64,000 nucleotides of DNA from the NCBI GenBank assembly GCA_965372715.1, contig CBDVDH010000010.1, positions 1-64,000 of the forward strand, read 5' to 3'. This DNA is from an uncultured bacterium. GTDB lineage: Bacteria; B130-G9. Within the stretch, counting starts at the first letter, position 1. Each line of letters starts with the position of its first letter. Below the pieces are notes generated by a model. It was not told the DNA's origin and did not search any database. It was given only the letters and a program-made list of their open reading frames with translations. Positions 49,711 through 63,399 of this stretch are shown one piece after another. The position numbers were made by a program, and so were the translations under genes.

Positions 49711-49783
49711 AGCCCACGACCGGACTTGAACCGGTGTCCTCTTCCTTACCAAGGAAGTGCTCAACCTGCTGAGCTACGTGGGC
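49711..49783 (-). tRNA. tRNA-Thr (GGT)
   Basis: Anticodon arm CTTCC-TTGGTAA-GGAAG; T-arm GGTTCAAGTCC. Confidence 0.95.
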
Positions 49784-49805
49784 AGAAATAAATATCAACA
49801 AATAA

Positions 49806-49879
49806 AGCGGGAAACGGGATTCGAACCCGCGACCCTCAGCTTGGAAGGCTGATGCTCTAGCCAACTGAGCTATTCCCGC
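49806..49879 (-). tRNA. tRNA-Gly (TCC)
   Basis: GCGGGAA acceptor; TCAGC-CTTCCAA-GCTGA. Confidence 0.96.
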
Positions 49880-50008
49880 CTAAAACATCTAATCGATCGG
49901 AGCGAATTACCCTCATCACGCCGGCAGGCGCGAAAAAACCGATCTGGCAGCCAGTCAGCAAGGCCCAGCACATTCTCAACGAAAATTGGCGCCTCTACTT
50001 CGCGAACT

Positions 50009-50315: not shown

Positions 50316-53300
50316 CTATTCTAGCGCGAACGTGGCGATGCCTAGGTCAGAAATCGGCGTCAACGTGCCCAACTCGACCAGCGCTGTGAAGACTGTGTAA
50401 TTCCCAGGCATGTCAAAAGGCGCCCCAGAAGGCAGGTCAGCAGTGAATGCTACGGCCGAGAACTCGAAGCCCGCGTCGAGCGAAATCCCAGCGAAAATAG
50501 GGATGGCATCCGCCACCCAGGGAGCGTCGAGGAAACCCGTAGGAGACCAAAAGGCGCCGTCTGGGGTGAACATGATGACATAGTAGTCAGCGGTTACATC
50601 GTATGGCACGCGCGCATCGATCAAGATTGACACAGTATCTCCGGCCGTTGAATATGTGGCTTTATCCGCTGACAAATCCACAAAAGGCTCACCCGCGAGC
50701 GTGAACGTGTCAATCACCACGTCAGTCACGAGATCGGACGTCCCCGCCTCTAGAACGGTCATTTCGAGCGTGTAGATACCAGATTTCACTACCATCGGCG
50801 CCTGGCACGGAAGTGTAGTGTAAAGCAGCTGCGTAGTCTCATCGTGACCGGTCTCAATCTCCCAGTTGGTGTCATACAGCGAGAATCCTTCCGTCCAGTC
50901 GCCCTCAGAAGACGCGGACCAGGTCCGCTCCTCTGGGCCGCCGAGGTCGAACACCAGCACAAGGGAGAGATCGACCGACACAGGATCATCGGTATTGAAG
51001 ATGCTCATCTCTATCTCGAGCGCGTCGCCAAAGTGGAACGAGTTTCTGTTGGCCCAGACATCCACGACGAACTCGCCTGGGACCTCGACACCCACTCCTG
51101 AGAGGTCAACGGTTACGACCGGCGTTTCGGGGTCGTCCGTTACAACTGAAAGCTCGCCGGAGAACTCACCGTCCGCATCAGGCGCAAAAGTGACCCTAGT
51201 AAGAATGGCGGTGGCAGGTCTCAGCGTCTGAGGCAGTCCGCCCGCGAACGAGACCTCAAACGCAGGATCGTCAGTGGAGACCTCAGTAACCGTCAGGTCT
51301 GCATCGCCATTGTTTGTTATAACAAGGGATTCGGCGCTCTGCTCGCCCACGTTGACCTCGCCGAATGAGAGGCTCTCCGCGCTGACATGAACCTCCGGTT
51401 TTGGAATGTGATAGGTCGTGGCGCCGTCCGGGACAGTCGGCGGTTTCTCGACGTTGCCGACGTTATCTTGACAGACCGTGTAGAACCAATATGCGCCCTG
51501 CCCCTCGGGCGCGGTGAACTCAAACTGGCCCACGGTCCCAGTGCTCTCAAGACCCGAATCCACCCAAGCGCCGCCGTTGTAGCTATACCACAAAGCGGTT
51601 GTTGAGACGCCTGAACCGTCATCTCGAGCGCTAAACAAAACGTAGAACGGAACACTCTTGACAGAGGCATCCGGCGTAAAGACCGACGACCTCGGCGCGG
51701 TAGTATCAACGCTGATACTATCATCGGCGCCGGCGGTCGCTTCCTCATTTGAGGCGAAGTCGTATGCCTGGGTGTAGAACTCATAATAACCATCAGCGGT
51801 AGAATCCGGCGTAAACTCGAACGTGCCTGAGGCCTCGTCAAGGCTCGCCGCGTAAGCCCACGCTCCGCTGTTGAACCGATAGAACATATCAATATGCTCG
51901 ACGCCGGTCCCGGTGTCCGAACTAGTGTAGTCCAGAGAAAGCGGGAACGAGTTGACGACTGACCCTTCTATCGAGCATGACGATGTCGGAGCCGTCCTGT
52001 CCACGACAGTCGAGGCGTCCGCTTCTTCCGGCGCGAGCTCGACGTTGCCAGCCACATCAGAACCCACCGTGTAGAACCTATAGGCGCCGTCCGCCAACGT
52101 CCCTGGCACGTAATTGAAAGTACCCGAAGGAGCGGTTGAAGAAAGCCCCGTATAAGCATAGTCGCCGCTGTTGAAACTGGTCCACAGCTTCACATTGGAA
52201 AGCCCGGTTCCGCCGTCGGAAGCGGCAAAAGAGACGGCAATCGGGAATACGTTCGTGTATTCGGACGGCACACTCGCCTCAGAAACAGGCGCGATGATGT
52301 CGAATATCACAGTTGCTTCCGCAGCATCGGGCGCCAGCTCGACGTTGCCCGCATTGTCGGTCGCAACGGAGTAGAACCTGTATGTGCCAGCAGCGAGCGT
52401 TTCCGGGGTGTAATCGAAATCGCCCTCCGCGCCGGTCGCGGTCAAACCAGTGTCCTCGTAGGCCGCGCCATCAAGCGACACGTAAAGCGCTACGTTCGCC
52501 ACACCGGATGTCGTGTCGGCGGCCGTGAACGGAAGACAGATGGGGAACCCGATCGCATACGTCCCTTCAAAGGCCACGGACGACGAGGGGGCTGTTTGGT
52601 CAAAGACCAGCGCCCCGCCATCGGGCGTGTCAGGAAGCGACTCGAGATTGCCGGCGTTGTCCAGCGTCCGTGTGGCAAACTCGTATGTTCCATCGCCGTC
52701 AGGCGGATCGAAGGAGAAGCTGCCGTCAACCATGAGCGAGAAGGCAGACTTCGCCATAGTAGCCTGTTGGGCTACGTCGGCTGAACCGGTAGGAGTATTT
52801 GTGAGCCCAGAATCCTCCCAAGCCCCGCCATTGAACCTAAACCAAAGCGCCGCGCTCGCAACGCCGCTGGCGGTATCATCTGCCGTGTATGGCACATTGA
52901 CCGGCGTGGTGTTGGCGAAGACTCCCTCAGCCGGCAGGCCCGCCGCAGAGACCGGCTCCGTGGCGTCATAGACCGTTGTAGTTGGAGCCTCGGCTGGCAG
53001 GTCCTCAACGTTACCGGAGTTATCCCGGCCACGGAGGTAGAACCCATACGTGCCCTCGCCCCACGCCGAGACGTCAACCTCGATGACTCCACCGTTGGCC
53101 GGCCCAACCAGACCTGTATCCTGCCACACACCGCCGGCATATATCCAAGCAGAGACGGAGCTCATCCCTGACAGAGCGTCAATCGCCGTGTACGTCACGC
53201 CTATCACCGCAGCGTTAGAGAACTCAGGCGACGTGCAGCTCGTCTGAGGCGCAGTCCAATCCACCATTATCTGATCGTCCGGCGCAACGGGGACCGCCTC

Positions 53301-56300
53301 GGCATGACCTGCTTCGTCAAGGGCCACCGTGTAGAAGTAATACGAGCCTTCTATCTCCGATGCCGGCGTGTAGTAGAGCGTGCCTAACTCGCCCGACCCC
53401 GAAAGACCGGTATCGACCCAGGGGCCGCCCTCGAACTTGGCCCACAAGGCAACATCAACGACCGGCGTTACCGTGTCGCTGGCCATGTAGATCACCTCTA
53501 TCGGGAACACGGTCCCGTAGGTGTCAACGCTCGCCAGCGACTGTGGCGGATTCAGGTCAACAGTGACCGTGCAGTCGTAACCGGCGGGAGGCACACCCTC
53601 GATATTGCCGGCTGCGTCCGTGCCAATGGTGTAGAAGTCATAAACACCCTCGTTACCCTGAGCATCAAACGTGACGGCGCCGTCCATGTCGTAAACCGTC
53701 GCGAACAGATAGTAGGCGCCCTCATAGCAGTAGTAAACGCGGATGGAGACAAGGCCATGGGCCTCAACCGTCGTGTATGTCAGGTCAAACTGTGCGGTCG
53801 GCGAGATGGCTGGCCCCGCAATTGATGTCTCTGGAGCTATACCATCGTAGAGCGTGGTCGCATCAGGAAAGTCCGGAATCGGCTCCAGGAACCAACTGCC
53901 GCTCGTGGCCCTCGTGAAGAACTGATAGTAGCCATCGCCGTCGGGGCAGACGAAATCGAGCGTCCCGGAAGGGTCGGTCGAGACCGTTGACGTTGTTATC
54001 CACCCCGCCGCCTCAGCCTCGGGAAGCGTCGCGCCATATCGGTAGTATAGCGTGACGTGGTCGTATCCGTCGTTGCCGATGTCGGTCGTGAAGTCTATCG
54101 GCACCGTCGGTTCCGTAACGTATCCCGGCGCGTCCATGTCGGACAGCGCTAGCCTTGGATCATAGAGGCAGACCGCGTCCGCATCGCCGCCCGTGCCCTC
54201 CACGTTGCCGGCGGCGTCCGTCGCCGCGAGGTAGAAGTTGTAGTAGCCAGGTCCCATGTCAGGCGCCCAAACAAACTCGCCGGACGCCGCGCTCTCGTCG
54301 AGGCCCGTGTCCCGCAGCGTGTCGTCTGGAACTCCGTCAAGGCCCGTATATCTGTAATACAGGTGAACGTTCGCTATCGCGGTAAGAACGTCAACCGATT
54401 GATAAGCCACGCTTATCGTCGGATCGTTCACGACGCCTTCCGTCTGGCCCGTGCTGACCGGTGGGGTCGTGTCAAAGACGCTCGTGCAGTCCGCCGCCCC
54501 GGGCGCCTCGTCGTTACCCGCAGCGTCGGTGGCGAGGCTCATGAAGCCATAGACCCCGTCGCCGTGCGGGAATGCAAACGCGAACGTGCCACTCTTCATG
54601 GCTATGGAATAGCCCGAGGTCCCGAACGTGTCGAAAACACCAGAATCAGCCCAGGTCCCACCATCGAAGTTATACCAGAGCGCAACTTTGGCGACGCCCG
54701 ACAGGCTGTCGTTTGCGGTGTAATCCAGCGTCAATGGGGACGTTGGTGTCTGCGCTACACAGTCAATCGATGACGCTGGTGGGGTTGTGTCTAAGATTAC
54801 TACTTGGTCCGGCGTGCTTGGCGGCGCCTCCTTATTCCCAACGTTGTCGGTGGCAATTGTCATGAGCTCATAATTGCCGTCGCCAAACTGCGGCGTAATC
54901 ACGGTCGGATCGAGGGAGAACGTACCGCTTTCGCCTGGCTGCGACTGATAGGAATCCTGCCACTGAGTCTCGCCCTCGAAACGGTAGTAAAGCTTCGTGG
55001 AGGCAACGCCCGTGCCCGCATCTGAGGCCGTGAAATCGACGTCAAATGGCAAGTCGCCGATCAGTGGATCAGCCGTGCAGCTCGACTGAGGCATCGTCTG
55101 GTCGAGGTTCACCGTTGTGTCCGCGGAGCCCGGTGAGTCCTCAACATTGCCGGCCATATCCTGCGAAATAGTATAGAAGCCATACACGCCGTCTCCGTCC
55201 GCGAACGTGAACGTAAATGTCCCCGAATCGGCAGAAATCGACTGGCCTGTATCTGTCCACACGCCGCCCTCATACAGATACCAAAGAGCGACCTCATCCA
55301 CATCATCGTTGTCGGACGCGGTGAAATCAACATCGACGGCGGCTGCGTTCGTCTCATCAATGCTCGTGCAGCTCGAAACCGGCTTGGTCGCGTCGTAGAG
55401 CATGTTGGCTTGTGAAGCTGTGGGCGGATTCTCAACGTTGCCGTTTAAGTCCGTCGCTATCGTGTAGAAGTCATACGCGCCCTCACCTGGGGGAGCATAG
55501 AAATCAAATGTGCCAGCGACGCCCGATTCAGTGAGCCCGCTATCGGTCCACGCACCGCCCTCGTAGCGATACCGAAGGACGGTCGAATCCACGCCGCTGA
55601 GGTTATCGTCAGCGGTGAAATCAACCTGAACCGGCAGATTCGTCCAGTAATACTCAAGCCCGGCGTCCGCCGACGAGTCAGGCGGCGTGTCGTCGTATAT
55701 CGTCGAGGCGTCAGGGGCGCCCGGGGCATCCTCTGTGTTGCCCACATGGTCCGTGGCTCTCGTGTAGAAATCATATACGCCATTGCCCGAGCCGAGCGTT
55801 ACGGCAAAGCTGCCGTTCTGAGCAGTCGAGCTGTCTATCATGCTGTAGCCGCCGCCGTCGGACTGCATCCAGAGATCGACTCTGTCCACTCCCGAATTAT
55901 CGTCCGATGATGTGTAGTCAACCGTTATGCTATTGGTCTGCGACCGGCCCGGCGCGGAACAACTCGACGAAGGCGGAGTGTAGTCGTCATAGACGAACGG
56001 CCCGTTCAGCTGCCCAGCATCCGGATACCTATCCGTTCCGCCTCGTCCGTCGTCGGCCGTGAAGTAGTAAGTCGCGAGTCCCTCCTCCGGGATCGTTCCC
56101 GCCCAGACATAGGTTCCATTGTCCGGATCGCCTGAATCCAAGAACATTATGCGCGGTGCATCGTTGACATAGACGAGAAGTGGCGACGGCGCGTCGCCGT
56201 CAGGATCGTAGTAGTCGATGTAGAAGCTGAAGTCCGTGTCGGTCCGACCAAACGCGGGGTCAAACGAGGGATTGGAGAGCACGGGAGGCGCGTTACAGTC

Positions 56301-56822
56301 ATCAAGCATCACATCCTCTATCCTCTCCTGAAGCTCCAGCGCGCAGTCTTCGCGGCAACCCCCAGAATGATACCAGCCAATCACCACGTCGCAGCCGATC
56401 GCCCACTCCTTGGGTATACCACCACCGCCGTCGTTATAAGCGTTTCGCCCTTCATTATAGGTGTCGAGGCCAAAGTCAAACTCGTAGCCGTGGCTATCCT
56501 TGTAGCCCTGCACAGCTGCTGCGCTGTCACCCCAAAGGTCCAGAGCAAGAATCTCGACTGGGTCGCCACTAGCCTGAAAATACTCATAGATATAAGTGTT
56601 AAACGCTGCCAGCGTGTATTCGCAGTGGCTTCACCCTATGCCGAATAAGCTGAGAACTACAATCTTGTCTTCGTATTGTTCGTGCAGCCAAACATCGTTT
56701 CCGTCCAGGTCTTGGTACCTAATGTCGGGCGCAGCATCGCCTTCTCCCGGCGCGCCCCAGGCAAGTGCGCTGGCGAAGATAAACGCTACCAGCAGGATTG
56801 ACAAAAGGATATTCCGATGCAT
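50316..56822 (-). CDS. Giant secreted putative selenoprotein (~2168 aa): signal peptide, thioredoxin-fold (TlpA/AhpC-TSA) domain with UxxC, ~16 Ig-like repeats, ASH/choice-of-anchor-D-like domain, two C-terminal domains
   Basis: ORFs 56631..56822 and 50316..56513 are in one frame separated only by TGA 56631-56633; readthrough gives GDAAPD...DLDG...KIVVLSLFGIG-U-SHC; strong RBS AGGAGG before ATG 56822; 15 ~100-aa DxTxPxS...SGV...GxYxFYTxAxDxAGNxE repeats plus one other Ig-like unit. Confidence 0.82.
52743..52784. repeat. Family A 42-bp palindromic repeat inserted in frame within the giant gene
   Basis: GGCAGACTTCGCCATAGTAGC-N7-GCTACGTCGGCTGA is the reverse complement of the 47069-47110 pattern. 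Confidence 0.88.
56600..56618 (-). promoter_or_regulatory. Candidate bacterial SECIS hairpin
   Basis: UAC-ACGCU-GGC-AGCGU-UUA; G-starting loop 20 nt downstream of the UGA. Confidence 0.5.
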
Positions 56823-56905
56823 TGCTTACCTCCTTTTTAGGTTTCGCATCGCTGTCACAGCCGCTGAGCCCCTTGTGGCTCTACGAGCGGCACAAATAGC
56901 CCAAG

Positions 56906-56987
56906 TGGGGAGAGGAGGGTTCGAACCTCCGAAGGCTACGCCAACAGGTTTACAGCCTGCCCCCTTTGACCACTTGGGTATCTCCCC
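56906..56987 (-). tRNA. tRNA-Tyr (GTA)
   Basis: GCAGG-CTGTAAA-CCTGT, long variable arm, GGTTCGAACC. Confidence 0.95.
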
Positions 56988-57020
56988 ACAAAAAATAGCA
57001 CAACGCTCATTGCAAAGTCA

Positions 57021-57092
57021 AGCTGGCGAAGGGAGTCGAACCCCCGACCGGCTGATTACAAATCAGCTGCTCTACCACTGAGCTACGCCAGC
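57021..57092 (-). tRNA. tRNA-Thr (TGT)
   Basis: GCTGGCG acceptor; CTGA-TTTGTAA-TCAG region with TGT anticodon. Confidence 0.95.
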
Positions 57093-57116
57093 CCAGTATC
57101 AATAATCTCTCCACGT

Positions 57117-57356: not shown

Positions 57357-57836
57357 TCAACCCCGCTGCGCCACAGTCGCCACCGCAAAGGCCGCGATGC
57401 CCTCTTTTGCGCCCAAGAAACCCAGCCCCTCGGTGGTCGAGGCCTTGACGCTGACGCACGGCAGGGGAATGCGCAGGGCGCCGGCTATCGCTTCCCGCAT
57501 CCGGGCATAGTGGGGGCCAAGCTTCGGCTCCTGCGCGATAATCACGCTGTCAATGAATTCGGGAACGTAGCCGGCCTTTTCTATCGTCTCACGGACCTTC
57601 GCCAAGAGGTCGAGGCTGAAGGCGTCCTTGTAACGAGCGTCGGTGTCTGGGAATTGCTGGCCGATGTCCGGCAGACAGGCTGCACCCAAGAGGGCGTCGG
57701 AGATGGCGTGGCAGAGGCAGTCCCCGTCAGAGTGCCCCAGAAGACCCTTTTGGTATGGAACCTCGACGCCGCCCAGCACCAGCTTGCGGCCGAAAGCGAG
57801 CCGATGACAATCAAAACCTATTCCGAACCGAACCAT
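57357..57836 (-). CDS. ispF: 2-C-methyl-D-erythritol 2,4-cyclodiphosphate synthase
   Basis: GFD.H, GHSDGD..HA..DALLGA, KA.TTEGLG. Confidence 0.96.
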   Translation of the reverse strand: MVRFGIGFDCHRLAFGRKLVLGGVEVPYQKGLLGHSDGDCLCHAISDALLGAACLPDIGQQFPDTDARYKDAFSLDLLAKVRETIEKAGYVPEFIDSVIIAQEPKLGPHYARMREAIAGALRIPLPCVSVKASTTEGLGFLGAKEGIAAFAVATVAQRG

Positions 57837-58525
57837 TCCCCGCTCCTCGCGCTCAAGAGGGCGTTTGCGATCGCAAGATCATCCTGGAACGTGACCTTCA
57901 GGTTCGCCGGATGGCCTCGCAGAATCCTGATCTTGCCTCCTATCGCCTCAACCAGCGCAGCGTCGTCAGTGGCGACCAGTCCCTCAGCCCTGGCATGTTC
58001 GTGAGCCTTCAGCAGCCACTCTTTCTTGAAGACCTGCGGCGTCTGGACCTCGTAAAGGTTTTCTCTCAAGACCGTTTGCTGCACGATCCCATCAGCCGTC
58101 GCGCGCTTCAAGGTATCGGTAACAGGGACCCCGTAAATCGCTCCTGCGCAATCGCCGAGCCCCTCGATTGCCGAGGCCACCCATTCACTCCGCAACATAG
58201 GCCGCACAGCATCGTGGATCACGACGATCTCCACCCTTTCGTCGCACGCGTGCAAACCGTTGAACACTGAATCCTGGCGACGCGGGCCGCCAAGGACGGT
58301 CCTGGTCAACTTTGGGAATCGCCCCGCGGGAGCAAGCGACTCGAAGCGCTTTCTGCCCCCTTTGGAGAGCACAAGAACTATCTCTGACACGCCCTCGCAG
58401 CTCTGAAAGGCCTGAACCGAATACAAGACCATCGGGACCCCGCAGACCTCAACGAAAGGTTTCTCAACGCCCGAACCCATCCTAGCGCCCAAGCCGCCCG
58501 CAACTACTATCGCTGAAACGAACAT
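57818..58525 (-). CDS. ispD: 2-C-methyl-D-erythritol 4-phosphate cytidylyltransferase
   Basis: AGG.G.RMG...K, GG.RRQDSV, IHDAVRP, QTPQVF, ATDD, NLKVT. Confidence 0.95.
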   Translation of the reverse strand: MFVSAIVVAGGLGARMGSGVEKPFVEVCGVPMVLYSVQAFQSCEGVSEIVLVLSKGGRKRFESLAPAGRFPKLTRTVLGGPRRQDSVFNGLHACDERVEIVVIHDAVRPMLRSEWVASAIEGLGDCAGAIYGVPVTDTLKRATADGIVQQTVLRENLYEVQTPQVFKKEWLLKAHEHARAEGLVATDDAALVEAIGGKIRILRGHPANLKVTFQDDLAIANALLSARSGEWFGSE

Positions 58526-58603
58526 CTGACTGTCCTTCATCATCGTCGTTCCATAACAGGCCGACACAAGGATGCTGTGTCACAATTCTGCAGACGGTTC
58601 TGC

Positions 58604-58671
58604 GTAGGGGTGTTCGCAGCGCGGCGAACCGCACCCGTTAGGTTTTCGGGCGGAGCAAGCGCCGCCCCTAC
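58604..58671. repeat. Inverted pair of GTAG-type REP-like palindromes upstream of ispD
   Basis: 58648-58671 is identical to 57256-57279 (24 nt). Confidence 0.8.
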
Positions 58672-58750
58672 AGAGCCTTCCCGTCGTTCTGGGGCCGCGC
58701 TCTAGAGACCCGCCGGTTGCAGAGGAATACCCTCCCTGCCGCTGGTCAGT

Positions 58751-59815
<1,065 letters not shown>

Positions 59816-60121
59816 CTCACTCAACCTCCTGTAAGAAAGCTGCACGTTCCCTTGACCGGCCCATTCATCTGAAAAACGCAGGACTGCCACCCAATACGCT
59901 TGTGTAACGCCATCACGTTCCGCTCGACAGATAAGCGTGAAGGGCTCTTGCCCTTGCTGCGGGCCGGTTCAAATGTGCCACAAACTAAAAGAATAAATAA
60001 TATGCCACGAAATCAACGAGGGGCTCAGTACTTTTGATCCTCGCCCATCATTCACCATGCACTAAGCATCCCAAATATCAGATCGCTTTCAACCCGCAGT
60101 CTTGTGCTCAATAAATGTAAC

Positions 60122-61309
60122 TCATTTGGGCCCTACTGGTTCCATCTCCTCGATTCTTTTCTTTTTTCTCTCTTGGGGCTTGCCGCGACGCTTCGGCCTG
60201 CCCGGACACTTCATCGGCTCCCGCGTCTTGAGCCCCAAATAAAGAGGAATCCTTATCTCGTCGCCTATCTTCAGCGTATTTGGGTCCAGGTCTTTGTTGA
60301 AGTCCCTTATCTTCCGCCAGTTGTTCGGGTTGCCGGTATACCACCTGGAAATAGCAAAGAGAGTCTCGCCATTACACCTAATGTTGTGCAGTATGTAGCC
60401 CTCTCTCAAGGCAGCGCTCGCTATATCCACGAGCTCCCCTGCGAGTCTATCCGTCAGACTTGCGCATTCCTTTAGCTTGCCCTTCTCGAGTAGTTGCTTG
60501 GCCCCTGTAATACCTCTCTCCCATGCTCCCAGGTCGGACCGTAGCCCATCAATAACGCTCCTCTTCGCGGCGCCGGTCGAAGCCTCGAATACTCGCCTTG
60601 CGGCGGACACATACTGCTTCTCGAGCGACGTAATCGACGCTCTCAGGTCCTGCTTCCTCAGATCGCTGGCCTTCCTGATCTCTGCCTGAGCGGCCCCAGA
60701 ACTAAGCAGTCTGAAGCTCTTGAATACTCCGTGAATCTCATCCTTGACCAACTCGTAGAGCAAGTCGGAAGTCCGGCAGACAATCGCAAAGCCACTAGAC
60801 CCGGCCGTTATGAGCCAAATCCTGTAGATGAACCTATCCGATTCAACCTGTTGGTGGTAACCCACCTCGAGCGCCTCACCCCAGTGCATTGTCAGTTTGC
60901 GCCGTTCAATCTGGCGCATCGGATAGACCTGGCGAGTTACCGAGGCAATCATCTTCTCATACTTCTCAGGATTGCTCAGATTGCGCTTCGGATTGAAACT
61001 GAACACAGCGACCTTGCCGAACGTTGCGTTGTCCTTGCCCCGGAACGTAACAAGAGTGCCTCGCATATACCACGGGGCCTGAGTAGCTGCCCATCCCAAA
61101 GGGACCACGAACCGAAAACCGTAACCCTCGTTTACATAGGTCCGATGAATGAAAATCCCCGGATCTGAACGGACCCGAACGGGAAAAGAAGCCCCGCAGC
61201 CAACCAACCACAAGCAGAAGAACAACAAGAAAACAGCCCGGGCAAAAAAGTCCGACCTCGCAACGCCATCAAAGCCCGTTGAACTACCGTCTGCGCTAGT
61301 CTGACGCAT
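60122..61309 (-). CDS. Putative lipoprotein with a PsbP-like N-terminal domain and C-terminal LysM domain
   Basis: LVGC lipobox; YGF.F.VP.GW; GETLFAISRWYTGN...W.KI...N....PNTLKIG..I.IP. Confidence 0.7.
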   Translation of the reverse strand: MRQTSADGSSTGFDGVARSDFFARAVFLLFFCLWLVGCGASFPVRVRSDPGIFIHRTYVNEGYGFRFVVPLGWAATQAPWYMRGTLVTFRGKDNATFGKVAVFSFNPKRNLSNPEKYEKMIASVTRQVYPMRQIERRKLTMHWGEALEVGYHQQVESDRFIYRIWLITAGSSGFAIVCRTSDLLYELVKDEIHGVFKSFRLLSSGAAQAEIRKASDLRKQDLRASITSLEKQYVSAARRVFEASTGAAKRSVIDGLRSDLGAWERGITGAKQLLEKGKLKECASLTDRLAGELVDIASAALREGYILHNIRCNGETLFAISRWYTGNPNNWRKIRDFNKDLDPNTLKIGDEIRIPLYLGLKTREPMKCPGRPKRRGKPQERKKKRIEEMEPVGPK

Positions 61310-63230
61310 TCCCCAGCTGCCCTATAACTTGGTCTCTCTTTCTCTTCAAGTCTCTGTTGTCCGGACACGCCCTGACGCCCTCCGAGAAAACCTTCGCCGC
61401 TCGCTGCAGGTTACCCATCTTGTGATAAGTTACGCCCAAATTGATGTAAGCGTCACATACAAGAGACGAACCCGAGCCTATCACAACCTTGAACTCCTCG
61501 GCCGCTTTTGAATAGCTCTTGAGCGAAAGGTACGCATGACCCAGGTTGAAATGAGCGAGCGGAAGGTCCGGCTTGATCGAGAGTGCTTTCCTATAGTTGG
61601 AGAGCGCTCGTTGATAGTCGCTCGCACGTGAATGAACCCGACCGGCCTGCAAATACGCCTCGTAGGAATCGGGATGAATCCGAATAGCTTTGCGGAAGAA
61701 CTCAAGCGCAGTGTCTGGATCATCCTTCATCCTGTCCTTGCCGACTTCTACACAGCAATCCGAGTAGTCCTTTGCGAGCTCGGGGAGCTCTCCCCGAGCA
61801 AGCTCCATCGCCTTCTCAAACCTGACCAGAGCCTTTCGCCTTTCGCCCTTGTCAGACAACGCCTTGGCCTGCAAAGCCACGTCCCTCGCCAAGTCCACGC
61901 GGTCCGACCGTACGCTTCTGCGCCCAGGCGCCAATGCGTCCAACCTGGGCTCCGAGAGCTCGCTCGGCACCGGAGCCGTCAACCTGATCCCTCCTCTCGT
62001 CTCCTCCCCTACCAGAGCCAAAATCAAGTACCCCGAAAGGAAAACAACGCCGAGCATCAGCATCAAAAGGAACATGAGCAGCGGCTCACGCTGGAGCGCT
62101 CGAGGAGACCTTGCCGCCCGCAACAGGACGGAAACCGCGCCCTTCAACGTTCCTCTATGCCTACCCAACGGGGAAGCGGAGGGCCCTTTGGCCTCTCCTT
62201 TCTCGGCCGGCTTGCGCTGCGCCGCCTCCAATGCCGTCTCAAACAGCCCTTCCACCTCAGGCTCCCCAATGTGTGAATGCGCTCTGCCGATGCCACCCTG
62301 CGCCTTGGCGTTGTCCGGGTCCAGCTTCAGAACCTGCTGCCAGATCGCCATCGCAGAACGGTATTTGCCCTCATTATAGAGACTGAACGCTCGCCTGTTA
62401 AGCCTTACGACCTCCGCATACGTAACATCCCCGCTAATAAAGGCCTCCATCTCCTTCACAGTCTGGAAGCGCTCGTCCGGTGATTTCTGCATCGCCTTCA
62501 CAATCGCATCCTCAATCACCTGAGGAATCCGTTCAACGATGCTGCGAGGCGCCGGCGCCGTCTCCTTCACGTGCCGCTCCATTATCTCAAAAGCGCTATT
62601 CCCAGAAAATGCGGGCCGACCTGTTGCCATCTCATACAAGAGGGCGCCGAGCGAATAGAGGTCCGAACGCTCATCAATGGGCTCACGCCTGATCTCCTCC
62701 GGCGACAGATACCGAACGCGGCCCAAGACCGAGGTAGCCGTCAGCATCGCGGTCGCGCCAACTATCCTCGATTGGCCAAAATCCGCCACCTTAAGGCCGC
62801 TGTCCTCGCCCAGGAGAACGTTGCTCGGCCTTATGTCCCCGTGCAGCACTCCCATCTTGTGAGCCGACTCTATAGCCTGCAGAATCTGCGAGAACATCGA
62901 AAGCAACCTCTCTGGCGGCACAGGGCCGTCGTCGGTGATAACCTCTCGCAATGACCGCCGCTTCAACATCTCCATTATTATGAAGTAACTGTCATACTGC
63001 TTGACAAAATCATAGATGACCACGATGTTGGGATGGCTAAGCTTGGACTGCGCAAGCGCCTCAACTCGAAAACGCTCACGTACCGACAGGTCCGATGTCT
63101 GGAAGAGCTTTAGCTGCTTGACAGCGACCGGGCGGCCCAGGCTGGGCTGAACAGCACGATAGACTATCGCGCTTGAGCCCTCTCCAATTAGGCCCTTAAC
63201 TTCGTACGAGCCTACCCACTTACCGATCAT
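61296..63230 (-). CDS. Hanks-type Ser/Thr kinase with TM helix and TPR repeats (probable start ATG 63230)
   Basis: IGEG..AIVY, VAVK, HGDIRPSN, DFG, SPE, SDLYSLG; TPRs AHFNLG, YINLG. Confidence 0.88.
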   Translation of the reverse strand: MIGKWVGSYEVKGLIGEGSSAIVYRAVQPSLGRPVAVKQLKLFQTSDLSVRERFRVEALAQSKLSHPNIVVIYDFVKQYDSYFIIMEMLKRRSLREVITDDGPVPPERLLSMFSQILQAIESAHKMGVLHGDIRPSNVLLGEDSGLKVADFGQSRIVGATAMLTATSVLGRVRYLSPEEIRREPIDERSDLYSLGALLYEMATGRPAFSGNSAFEIMERHVKETAPAPRSIVERIPQVIEDAIVKAMQKSPDERFQTVKEMEAFISGDVTYAEVVRLNRRAFSLYNEGKYRSAMAIWQQVLKLDPDNAKAQGGIGRAHSHIGEPEVEGLFETALEAAQRKPAEKGEAKGPSASPLGRHRGTLKGAVSVLLRAARSPRALQREPLLMFLLMLMLGVVFLSGYLILALVGEETRGGIRLTAPVPSELSEPRLDALAPGRRSVRSDRVDLARDVALQAKALSDKGERRKALVRFEKAMELARGELPELAKDYSDCCVEVGKDRMKDDPDTALEFFRKAIRIHPDSYEAYLQAGRVHSRASDYQRALSNYRKALSIKPDLPLAHFNLGHAYLSLKSYSKAAEEFKVVIGSGSSLVCDAYINLGVTYHKMGNLQRAAKVFSEGVRACPDNRDLKRKRDQVIGQLGNASD

Positions 63231-63370
63231 CTCTGAATCCCTCAACCCACTAAACGAACCAAAAGCTCTTCCCCGCGCCGCCAATCGTAAGCTAAGCGGA
63301 CAAGAGAAGCACCCTTGGGTCCATTTTGCAGCATAGACCTTCAGATCGCAAGCACTATTGTCCATTGAAA

Positions 63371-63399
63371 AACCTAACTCACCCAAGAATAAATGTCAA
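63371..63399 (-). promoter_or_regulatory. Putative promoter TTGACA-N17-TAGGTT for the kinase gene
   Basis: Consensus -35 and partial -10. Confidence 0.45.

Follow-up and report, generated by a model that had tools for sequence, protein, structure and literature searches.

The thiol-disulfide oxidoreductases of the ResA, StoA, CcmG (DsbE), TlpA, Etrx2 and SdbA type are cysteine proteins of about 140-180 residues, engaged in the maturation of cytochrome c or Cu centres or in the repair of methionine sulfoxide. Selenocysteine (Sec, U) is also predicted in proteins of this kind, and predicted selenoprotein families with a UxxC motif, TlpA-like (cd02966) and PF00578, are already entered in Table 1 of PMC13188914. 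A further point of reference is MccSep of Geobacter sulfurreducens, described in a preprint (bioRxiv 10.1101/2025.11.18.688581) as a multihaem cytochrome with Sec in an Ig-like domain, forming a 200-kDa tetramer of small subunits. Here we describe a gene at positions 50316-56822, reverse strand, of a 64,000-nucleotide stretch of DNA (contig CBDVDH010000010.1 of assembly GCA_965372715.1; the window, as we call the whole stretch analysed), which comes from an uncultured bacterium of the phylum Candidatus (Ca.) Coatesbacteria. On the evidence of its sequence, this is very probably one gene for an exported selenoprotein of 2168 residues, in which a redoxin head is carried on a repeat stalk. The features on which this reading is built are the following.

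50316-56822, reverse strand: complete coding sequence of 2168 codons plus a TAG stop (50316-50318), with TGA codon 64 read as selenocysteine.
56631-56633, reverse strand: in-frame TGA, codon 64, the proposed selenocysteine codon, occupying one alignment column across all 7 orthologues.
56603-56615, reverse strand: hairpin ACGC-UGGCA-GCGU, resembling a selenocysteine insertion sequence (SECIS), with its loop starting 19 nt after the UGA and conserved in 7 of 7 orthologues.
56283-56744, reverse strand: TlpA/ResA-type thioredoxin-fold head, residues 27-180 approximately, with U64-S-H-C67 and P137, from Pfam, an alignment to ResA, AlphaFold and Foldseek.
56754-56822, reverse strand: putative N-terminal hydrophobic signal sequence, residues 1-23 approximately, MHRNILLSILLVAFIFASALAWG, from the sequence and from a helix at residues 3-20 of the model.
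56829-56834, reverse strand: Shine-Dalgarno sequence AGGAGG, read from the sequence, with a 6-nt spacer to the ATG at 56822.

An earlier note on this DNA, made from the letters and a list of open reading frames (ORFs), had proposed that an ORF of 63 residues (56631-56822, reverse strand) and another of 2065 residues (50316-56513, reverse strand) share one frame with a single TGA between them. The two frames are indeed the same, and reading through 50316-56822 yields 2168 residues with TGA codon 64 as the sole internal stop and a terminal TAG. The 40 codons separating the TGA from the GTG of the longer ORF are all open, and the residues around codon 64 (...LFGIG-U-SHC-EYTLAAF...) are identical to those that the note had read; the strong ribosome-binding site that it reported is the AGGAGG listed above. 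The checks that the note had suggested lend support to its interpretation. The prediction that standard annotation would split the gene also proved correct, since one orthologue is filed in the public record as a 'choice-of-anchor D domain-containing protein' of 2063 residues whose start lies inside the redoxin fold.

The comparative evidence comes from a six-frame search over 61 genomes, followed by a search across the phylum. An orthologue with exactly one in-frame TGA was found in the window genome and in all six other members of its family, with identities of 41-70%. These seven genomes, spanning one family and four genera, are those of the phylum that were examined, and the gene is present in every one of them. 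In all seven orthologues the TGA occupies the same alignment column, while the three residues that precede it diverge (GIG, STT, GVD, AGY, ATW). Four orthologues are complete, with 2168, 2168, 2157 and 2156 residues, and each of them has one U and a TAG stop; the remaining three are incomplete, one running past the end of its contig, another lying on a 2.4-kb contig and the third, in genome G002, ending at 1518 residues. In this last case (L042, G002:C46) a TAG follows residue 1518 in the middle of the stalk, and the shortening may reflect a real truncation, a frameshift or a mis-assembly of the repeats.

The window genome (3.56 Mb, 95.9% complete) encodes the apparatus that selenocysteine insertion would call for. 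It holds a tRNA-Sec (selC) with anticodon TCA (75.6 bits) together with selA (567 bits), selB (315 bits) and selD (371 bits), so that the four genes whose presence the earlier note had proposed to check are all accounted for. Across the phylum, selA and tRNA-Sec occur in 7 of 7 genomes and selD in 6 of 7, the genome lacking a match being 83% complete. The assertion that TGA serves as a normal stop elsewhere holds as well: the whole genome has 1660 stop-to-stop frames with 300 codons or more, of which 766 end in TGA, 602 in TAG and 292 in TAA, and TGA is hence a normal stop in this genome, being the commonest one of long frames. A scan of the genome for further Sec genes began with 3928 in-frame TGAs in a redox-like context, of which 82 combined a U..C or C..U pattern with a hairpin and 20 were retained by eye; in this admittedly crude scan, no Pfam domain spanned the TGA in any of the 20, two of which proved to be ordinary genes with an in-frame TGA upstream. 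The genome contains nine AhpC-TSA matches, and the gene described here is the sole one with a TGA.

The nature of the head is documented by several lines. The earlier note had recognized a TlpA/AhpC-TSA layout, with the TGA at the first Cys of a CxxC motif and a later Pro of the fold, and this assignment is upheld by the profile, alignment and structural comparisons. Pfam AhpC-TSA spans the TGA, covering residues 28-130 with 31.9 bits against a cut-off of 26, and the best sequence matches among solved structures are ResA thiol-disulfide oxidoreductases (E 2.9e-7), in whose alignment U64 pairs with the first Cys of CxxC. The AlphaFold model of the head, computed from 46 aligned sequences, has a mean predicted local distance difference test score (pLDDT) of 95.6 and places U64 directly before a helix at residues 65-85. 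When this model was compared with known structures by Foldseek, the top ranks were taken by ResA, Etrx2, DsbE, StoA, SdbA and TlpA, with template-modelling (TM) scores on the target of 0.75-0.88 and a probability of 1.00 for ResA, DsbE and TlpA; all these top structures are extracytoplasmic TlpA-like reductases. In the 46-sequence alignment, which includes 39 distant homologues, C67 is invariant, the column of U64 holds Cys in at least 90% of sequences and P137 is likewise conserved in at least 90%, so that homologues with Cys and homologues with TGA at the site, both of which the earlier note had suggested seeking, are at hand. Within the seven orthologues, U64, C67 and P137 (in GIP) are invariant, as are four further Cys residues at positions 144, 156, 160 and 176.

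In databases the head has few close counterparts. A homologue search with residues 1-200 returned nothing besides the window's own long ORF, and none of the curated NCBIfam selenoprotein models matches the head. Among 1.84 billion representative proteins, the sole close matches to it are three fragments of 63-65 residues that match residues 1-62 and correspond to predicted leader ORFs ended at the TGA; a Cys-form orthologue of the head was not found among these representatives, the next matches having at most 36% identity. Two redoxin paralogues without a TGA from long reading frames of the related genomes, L044 (G001:C29) and L045 (G004:C90), were considered as Cys-form equivalents and set aside for their SxxC motif and different bodies. 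Both are secreted proteins in which S-R-C replaces CxxC, followed by a sandwich similar to the end module described below and by a long unrelated body. In genomes of other phyla, the loci G050:C51:9893-10219, G050:C82:840-1220, G008:C35:36957-37406 and G041:C1:113760-114056 resemble redoxins weakly (E 4e-5 to 1e-3) and each contain a single in-frame TGA; these may be unrelated thioredoxin-like selenoproteins.

The hairpin downstream of the UGA pairs 56612-56615 with 56603-56606 around the loop UGGCA. The form (U)ACGC-UGGNA-GCGU(A) is found in all seven orthologues, and the distance from the UGA to the loop is always 19 nt. The alignment holds 148 invariant amino-acid columns with at least four-fold degeneracy, and in only 8 of them is the codon identical in all 7 genomes; three of these eight are T70 (ACG), L71 (CTG) and A73 (GCG), whose codons supply the stem together with the first bases of the loop (p about 0.003 by permutation). 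At codon 72 the amino acid varies (A, E, V, D), and its first base is always G, which is the second G of the loop. No other 13-nt window in some 2100 aligned nt is as strongly conserved as the hairpin, and in this alignment the constraint visibly acts on the RNA. Criteria for bacterial SECIS elements (bSECIS), as given in PMC13188914, include a loop of 3-9 nt, a stem of 4-16 bp, a distance of 16-37 nt from the UGA, a G in the first two loop positions (N1-G-[G|U]-N-N2) and a minimum free energy of -7.5 kcal/mol or lower. In 7 of 7 orthologues the hairpin agrees with these values in loop size, stem length (4-5 bp), position of the G and spacing (19 nt), and the 52-nt region with the hairpin enforced has energies of -6.5 to -15.0 kcal/mol.

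A second gene of the phylum offers a standard of comparison. The selD of Coatesbacteria itself carries U where it would be expected (SGAG-U-AAKIGP), and each of the 6 genomes in which selD was found has one TGA there (nt 413-415 in L018, G000:C97; relatives L091-L095). Its UGA is followed after 16 nt by a hairpin GGUC-CGGGN-GACC in 6 of 6 genomes, with energies of -5.1 to -6.7 kcal/mol. The hairpins of selD and of the gene described here have in common a 4-6-bp stem, a C-G closing pair and a loop of five bases, the second and third of which are GG (C[NGGNN]G). With that of selD equally weak, a weak hairpin seems to be normal for this phylum.

Beyond the head, the protein consists of three further parts.

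51390-56270, reverse strand: 16 tandem beta-sandwich repeats of about 100 residues, OmpL47-type/Big_13-like, residues 185-1811, from phmmer, Pfam and NCBIfam.
51093-51422, reverse strand: choice-of-anchor D/HYDIN-ASH-type Ig-like domain, residues 1801-1910 approximately, from NCBIfam and Pfam.
50319-51110, reverse strand: C-terminal module of two beta-sandwiches, residues 1905-2168, from an AlphaFold model (pLDDT 89.1), common to other giant proteins of the genome.

A phmmer self-search seeded with one repeat gave 17 rows over residues 185-1811, which we read as 16 repeats because an insertion splits one of them, in keeping with the approximately 16 Ig-like repeats counted in the earlier note. 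The repeats score 71.9 bits with Pfam Big_13 and 76.6 bits, against a cut-off of 40, with NCBIfam barrel_OmpL47 (NF047446). The Ig-like domain that follows them is recognized by choice_anch_D (NCBIfam NF012200; 57.7 bits, cut-off 45) and by Pfam HYDIN_VesB_CFA65-like_Ig (36.1 bits). Over residues 1815-1909 (approximately 51096-51380) there is also a match to the 'OS_HP2 family (seleno)protein' model of NCBIfam, which we rejected as a sign of selenium chemistry: its 20.6 bits fall well short of the cut-off of 100, its position is remote from the Sec site, and it probably expresses a general Ig-fold likeness. Taking typical domain sizes, the 19 beta-sandwich domains would give the extended protein an estimated length of roughly 70-80 nm.

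The end module recurs in 18 places of the genome. In 10 of them it ends at most 3 residues from the stop, in one 17 residues before it and in seven it is internal; the stop-adjacent cases include frames of 3180, 3797 and 2164 residues. The module comprises some 130-260 residues and has a conserved tail, LP..APF..G.Y.LF.AL.E.GTL.P.SD.G.A.F. In five of the seven internal places, the frame closes instead in a Cys/Arg/Gly-rich tail (...G.RV/L...) that by eye looks FGE-sulfatase-like. A search of a protein-cluster atlas with the last 264 residues recovered just unnamed clusters, with low recognition. The nearest solved structure, the Vibrio biofilm scaffold RbmA, is reached with low TM scores (0.33-0.39), and this model-based likeness is a lead, no more. 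The module is possibly a domain for attachment or sorting that is specific to the lineage.

Among the database homologues that align with all of the C-terminal 369 residues are four orthologues and two paralogues, P0162, of 3381 residues with beta-helix repeat heads, and P0161, of 2501 residues with another head of about 440 residues. Residues 180-2168 are colinear with residues 1393-3381 of P0162 (47% identity over 2031 columns), and in that alignment no high-scoring segment pair reaches residues 1-170. Giant Coatesbacteria proteins of 2100-3800 residues with the same stalk and end module and with differing heads are also seen at G000:C8:8904-9689, C21:22722-23498 and C8:57498-58208. Since a common body carries several different heads among the paralogues, it presumably serves to present the head, and we read the part from residue 180 onwards as a shared cassette, predicted to act as a spacer and attachment device; the exchange of heads is the strongest argument at hand for that role.

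Several observations nonetheless weigh against the interpretation of this gene as an exported selenoprotein, or at least limit how much can be built upon it. Because the seven genomes belong to one family, the 7 of 7 agreement on the TGA does not amount to seven independent events. Sequencing reads were compared with positions 56000-57100 of the window in 19 runs, with shares of at most 0.19, and the four aligned runs leave the TGA uncovered. The aligned reads fall mostly on two tRNA genes, and those of an RNA run on the tRNA region only; run X1 gave two near-identical 151-nt contigs outside the TGA, and X2 one diverged 8.9-kb contig whose aligned pieces skip it. The profile searches proposed in the earlier note gave matches to AhpC-TSA, Big_13 and choice-of-anchor-D/HYDIN-ASH, with Pfam Redoxin remaining under its cut-off on the head (22.5 against 26.6 bits). 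The ResA subfamily model NF002854 of NCBIfam was not reached either, at 39.6 bits against a cut-off of 170. Peroxiredoxins are characterized by a peroxidatic motif PxxxTxxC/U (according to PMC13188914). This motif is absent from the head, where the position three before U is G, S, G, A, A, A and A in the seven orthologues and never the conserved Thr. With the peroxidatic motif missing and the ResA score far under its cut-off, the head is by its sequence a TlpA-like redoxin, neither a peroxiredoxin nor ResA proper. In the last 264 residues, Pfam searched up to E 10 recognizes nothing, neither the C-terminal domain of type IX secretion nor any other sorting domain represented there, and their fold is a generic tandem beta-sandwich; the three DsbD_TM/CcdA homologues of the genome all lie on other contigs, none of them adjoining the gene.

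Further reservations concern the hairpin. The hairpin with a G-led loop that the earlier note had pointed out does exist and is conserved in all seven orthologues, but in the window sequence alone it does no better than chance: it is not the minimum-energy fold, and the folds of the region have z-scores against shuffled sequences of -0.04 and -1.04. It is hence significant only through its conservation in relatives. Even there it is the free minimum-energy fold in just 4 of 7 orthologues, and on its own it has energies of -4.0 to -5.2 kcal/mol, short of the -7.5 threshold. None of 6 stem pairs displays compensatory changes in the seven orthologues, covariation being absent because the stem never varies. 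Rfam yields no family at E up to 10 over positions 56500-56700, and at gathering scores it reports five tRNAs only in the whole window.

This weakness of the hairpin, with no Rfam match, and the fact that the Sec reading rests on sequence leave some room for a UGA that is read without selenium, through a near-cognate Cys or Trp tRNA or some other recoding, which would leave the stalk with an ordinary redoxin of the CxxC or WxxC type. We regard this as very improbable. A single base change would turn the TGA into TGC or TGT, yet the TGA is kept in 7 of 7 orthologues, which argues that the TGA itself is selected; the Sec machinery is present in all seven genomes, the hairpin has the same form as the one after the UGA of the phylum's selD, and TGA is the commonest true stop of the genome. 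Were the TGA instead a true stop, the locus would produce an exported peptide of 63 residues and a separate protein of about 2065 residues from an internal start. The public annotation, which has the long ORF alone, and the occurrence of the 63-65-residue leader fragments as separate predicted proteins can be cited in favour of this arrangement, but the two ORFs would then be halves of one thioredoxin fold, and the 40 codons from TGA to GTG are conserved in frame. The annotated short form, moreover, starts within the fold and has no signal sequence, unlike paralogues P0161 and P0162, and the annotated lengths of four orthologues range from 2047 to 2090 residues, as guesses by gene callers would. 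Two separate products are hence hardly credible. As for a nonsense mutation, a pseudogene or a sequencing error, nothing speaks for them beyond the presence of a stop codon in a metagenome-assembled genome, whereas the same TGA occurs in seven separately assembled genomes and a frame of about 2160 codons is intact in four; the chance of such an explanation is close to negligible.

More weight attaches to an alternative that accepts the selenoprotein and reverses its topology. Under it, an uncleaved N-terminal segment would anchor the head at the inner membrane, the body would extend outward through the periplasm or envelope and the head would be the base. ResA, TlpA and CcmG-type relatives are N-terminally anchored, and the nearest solved structures (ResA, StoA, TlpA and DsbE) are membrane-tethered or periplasmic reductases; however, in the orthologues the hydrophobic core is followed by small residues at -1/-3 (W-[AG], then the mature part), which suit cleavage in an alignment read by eye, and the paralogues with other heads begin with ordinary signal sequences. 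The genome encodes BamA, and the organism is hence a diderm, with an outer membrane for which no known export signal was found at the C-terminus, while the DsbD_TM/CcdA homologues could re-reduce a head held at the inner membrane. On the other hand, an attachment or sorting module would be expected to sit close to the stop, as the end module does in 10 of its 18 places, at a distance of at most 3 residues. We consider the reversed topology doubtful, and we favour an exported protein with the redoxin head presented on the stalk. Selenocysteine insertion, location and substrate are each inferred, and so is the earlier note's picture of a head far from the cell that acts on extracellular disulfides.

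In its genomic setting, the 6.5 kb of the gene are inserted within a tRNA-Thr/Tyr...tRNA-Gly/Thr-tuf cluster, which in E. coli constitutes a single tRNA-tufB operon. The element directly upstream is the following.

56905-57093, reverse strand: tRNA-Tyr(gta) and tRNA-Thr(tgt), from tRNA calls, possibly in the same transcript.

This upstream Thr-Tyr pair is kept in 5 of the 5 relatives examined (L039-L043). Downstream, on one strand, come tRNA-Gly and tRNA-Thr(ggt) (49711-49880), tuf, tRNA-Trp, nusG and rplK, the Gly-Thr pair being seen in L040 alone among the five relatives; past rplK there are two frames of 1438 and 1577 residues, which by size and place are taken to be rpoB and rpoC. Consensus scans detected no promoter-like or terminator-like site from tRNA-Tyr to the ATG, a promoter-like site before tRNA-Thr, and a terminator-like hairpin with a promoter-like site past the gene. 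These are weak hints that the gene may be co-transcribed with the upstream tRNAs. Farther upstream (57357-63386, reverse strand) lie ispF (YgbB), ispD and genes for a PIN-domain protein, for a protein that resembles LysM-type domains weakly and under the threshold, and for a Ser/Thr kinase that carries TPR repeats. No gene for a redox partner was found among the scanned neighbours (57357-63386 upstream; tuf, nusG and rplK downstream).

A working model can be proposed for the synthesis and action of this protein. Ribosomes starting at the ATG at 56822 would reach the UGA at codon 64 with the conserved hairpin 19 nt beyond, and SelB with Sec-tRNA(Sec) would bind this hairpin, leading to insertion of selenocysteine in place of termination. 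Since the UGA comes so early, completion of this costly protein would presumably depend on a supply of selenium and on the presence of the Sec machinery. The product would then be exported by means of its N-terminal signal sequence, with the active site U64-x-x-C67 predicted to lie at the start of helix 1, facing the conserved Pro137 loop. There, the selenolate of U64 would attack a disulfide (or another S-S or S-X bond) of an extracytoplasmic substrate to form a selenenyl-sulfide, which C67 would resolve in the manner of thiol-disulfide oxidoreductases of the same fold; the Se-S bond might be re-reduced by a membrane reductase of the CcdA/DsbD type or by ambient reductants.

A broader and decidedly tentative extension of this model is that Coatesbacteria build surface fibres with exchangeable N-terminal heads, one of which, retained throughout the known phylum, would be tipped with a selenocysteine redoxin whose selenolate, displayed at a distance from any membrane reductase, could act as a reactive probe or covalent grapple. 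If so, possible partners for selenenyl-sulfide bonds would be disulfide-rich surfaces, polysulfide, elemental sulfur or the metal sulfides of anoxic sediment. That would make the protein the first selenoenzyme displayed outside the cell on a stalk and, with SelD, one of the few visible reasons for the phylum to keep the Sec machinery.

Whatever the fate of that extension, the gene illustrates how selenoproteins are routinely lost in annotation: because it is filed as a headless 'choice-of-anchor D' protein, its sole catalytic domain is hidden in the public record. It provides a concrete, testable case of a candidate selenol outside the cytoplasm and reveals that an uncultured phylum has a family of modular proteins with heads on stalks. 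The minimal natural SECIS that it appears to have in common with selD (13 nt, with a C[NGGNN]G apex) helps to define the target of the phylum's SelB. In the lists of PMC13188914, the bacterial selenoproteins described are mostly redox enzymes and none is so built; a Sec site on a secreted repeat protein of 2168 residues would thus widen the places and scales at which selenium chemistry is possible. The main texts of the literature searched gave, among the papers listed, no description of this architecture and none linking Coatesbacteria to selenocysteine; the literature on selenocysteine and TlpA held no such protein, as judged by its listing and abstracts, and nothing was found on selenoproteins in combination with choice-of-anchor domains.

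The novelty that the earlier note saw in this architecture appears to stand for the giant head-on-stalk build and has to be narrowed with respect to the head itself, in view of the UxxC TlpA-like selenoproteins listed in PMC13188914. As described in its Table 1, those cd02966 and PF00578 families resemble the present gene in their thioredoxin fold, in having Sec for the first Cys of CxxC and in a bSECIS located directly downstream within the coding sequence; the table descriptions by which they were compared state no lengths and make no mention of a fusion to a repeat stalk, whereas here the redoxin domain represents the first 8% of a secreted protein of 2168 residues. With ResA, StoA, CcmG (DsbE), TlpA, Etrx2 and SdbA, the head has in common its fold, an active site at the start of helix 1, the Pro loop and an N-terminal export or anchor segment, and it differs from them by its Sec, its four extra invariant Cys residues and an extension of 2000 residues. 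MccSep, according to the preprint, is likewise a bacterial selenoprotein exported to the periplasm; its signal peptide is cleaved, it contains an Ig-like domain and it too was mis-annotated as two genes at its UGA, but it is described without a thioredoxin fold and without a repeat stalk. Two Cys-form proteins of other organisms, P0105 (462 residues; AhpC-TSA followed by three Big_3_5) and P0055 (568 residues), also join a TlpA-like head to an Ig-like tail, yet they are four to five times shorter, have Cys in place of Sec, use other Ig families and have 29-32% identity in the head. The paralogues P0162 and P0161 of the phylum have the signal sequence, the stalk, the choice-of-anchor-D domain and the end module, colinear at 46-47% over about 2000 residues, and they differ in bearing unrelated heads with neither a TGA nor a redoxin domain. 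Set against these systems, the chemistry and the recoding of the present gene are familiar, while its giant head-on-stalk architecture appears to be undescribed, and its scale, its modular display and its phylum-wide retention appear to be what it adds that is new.

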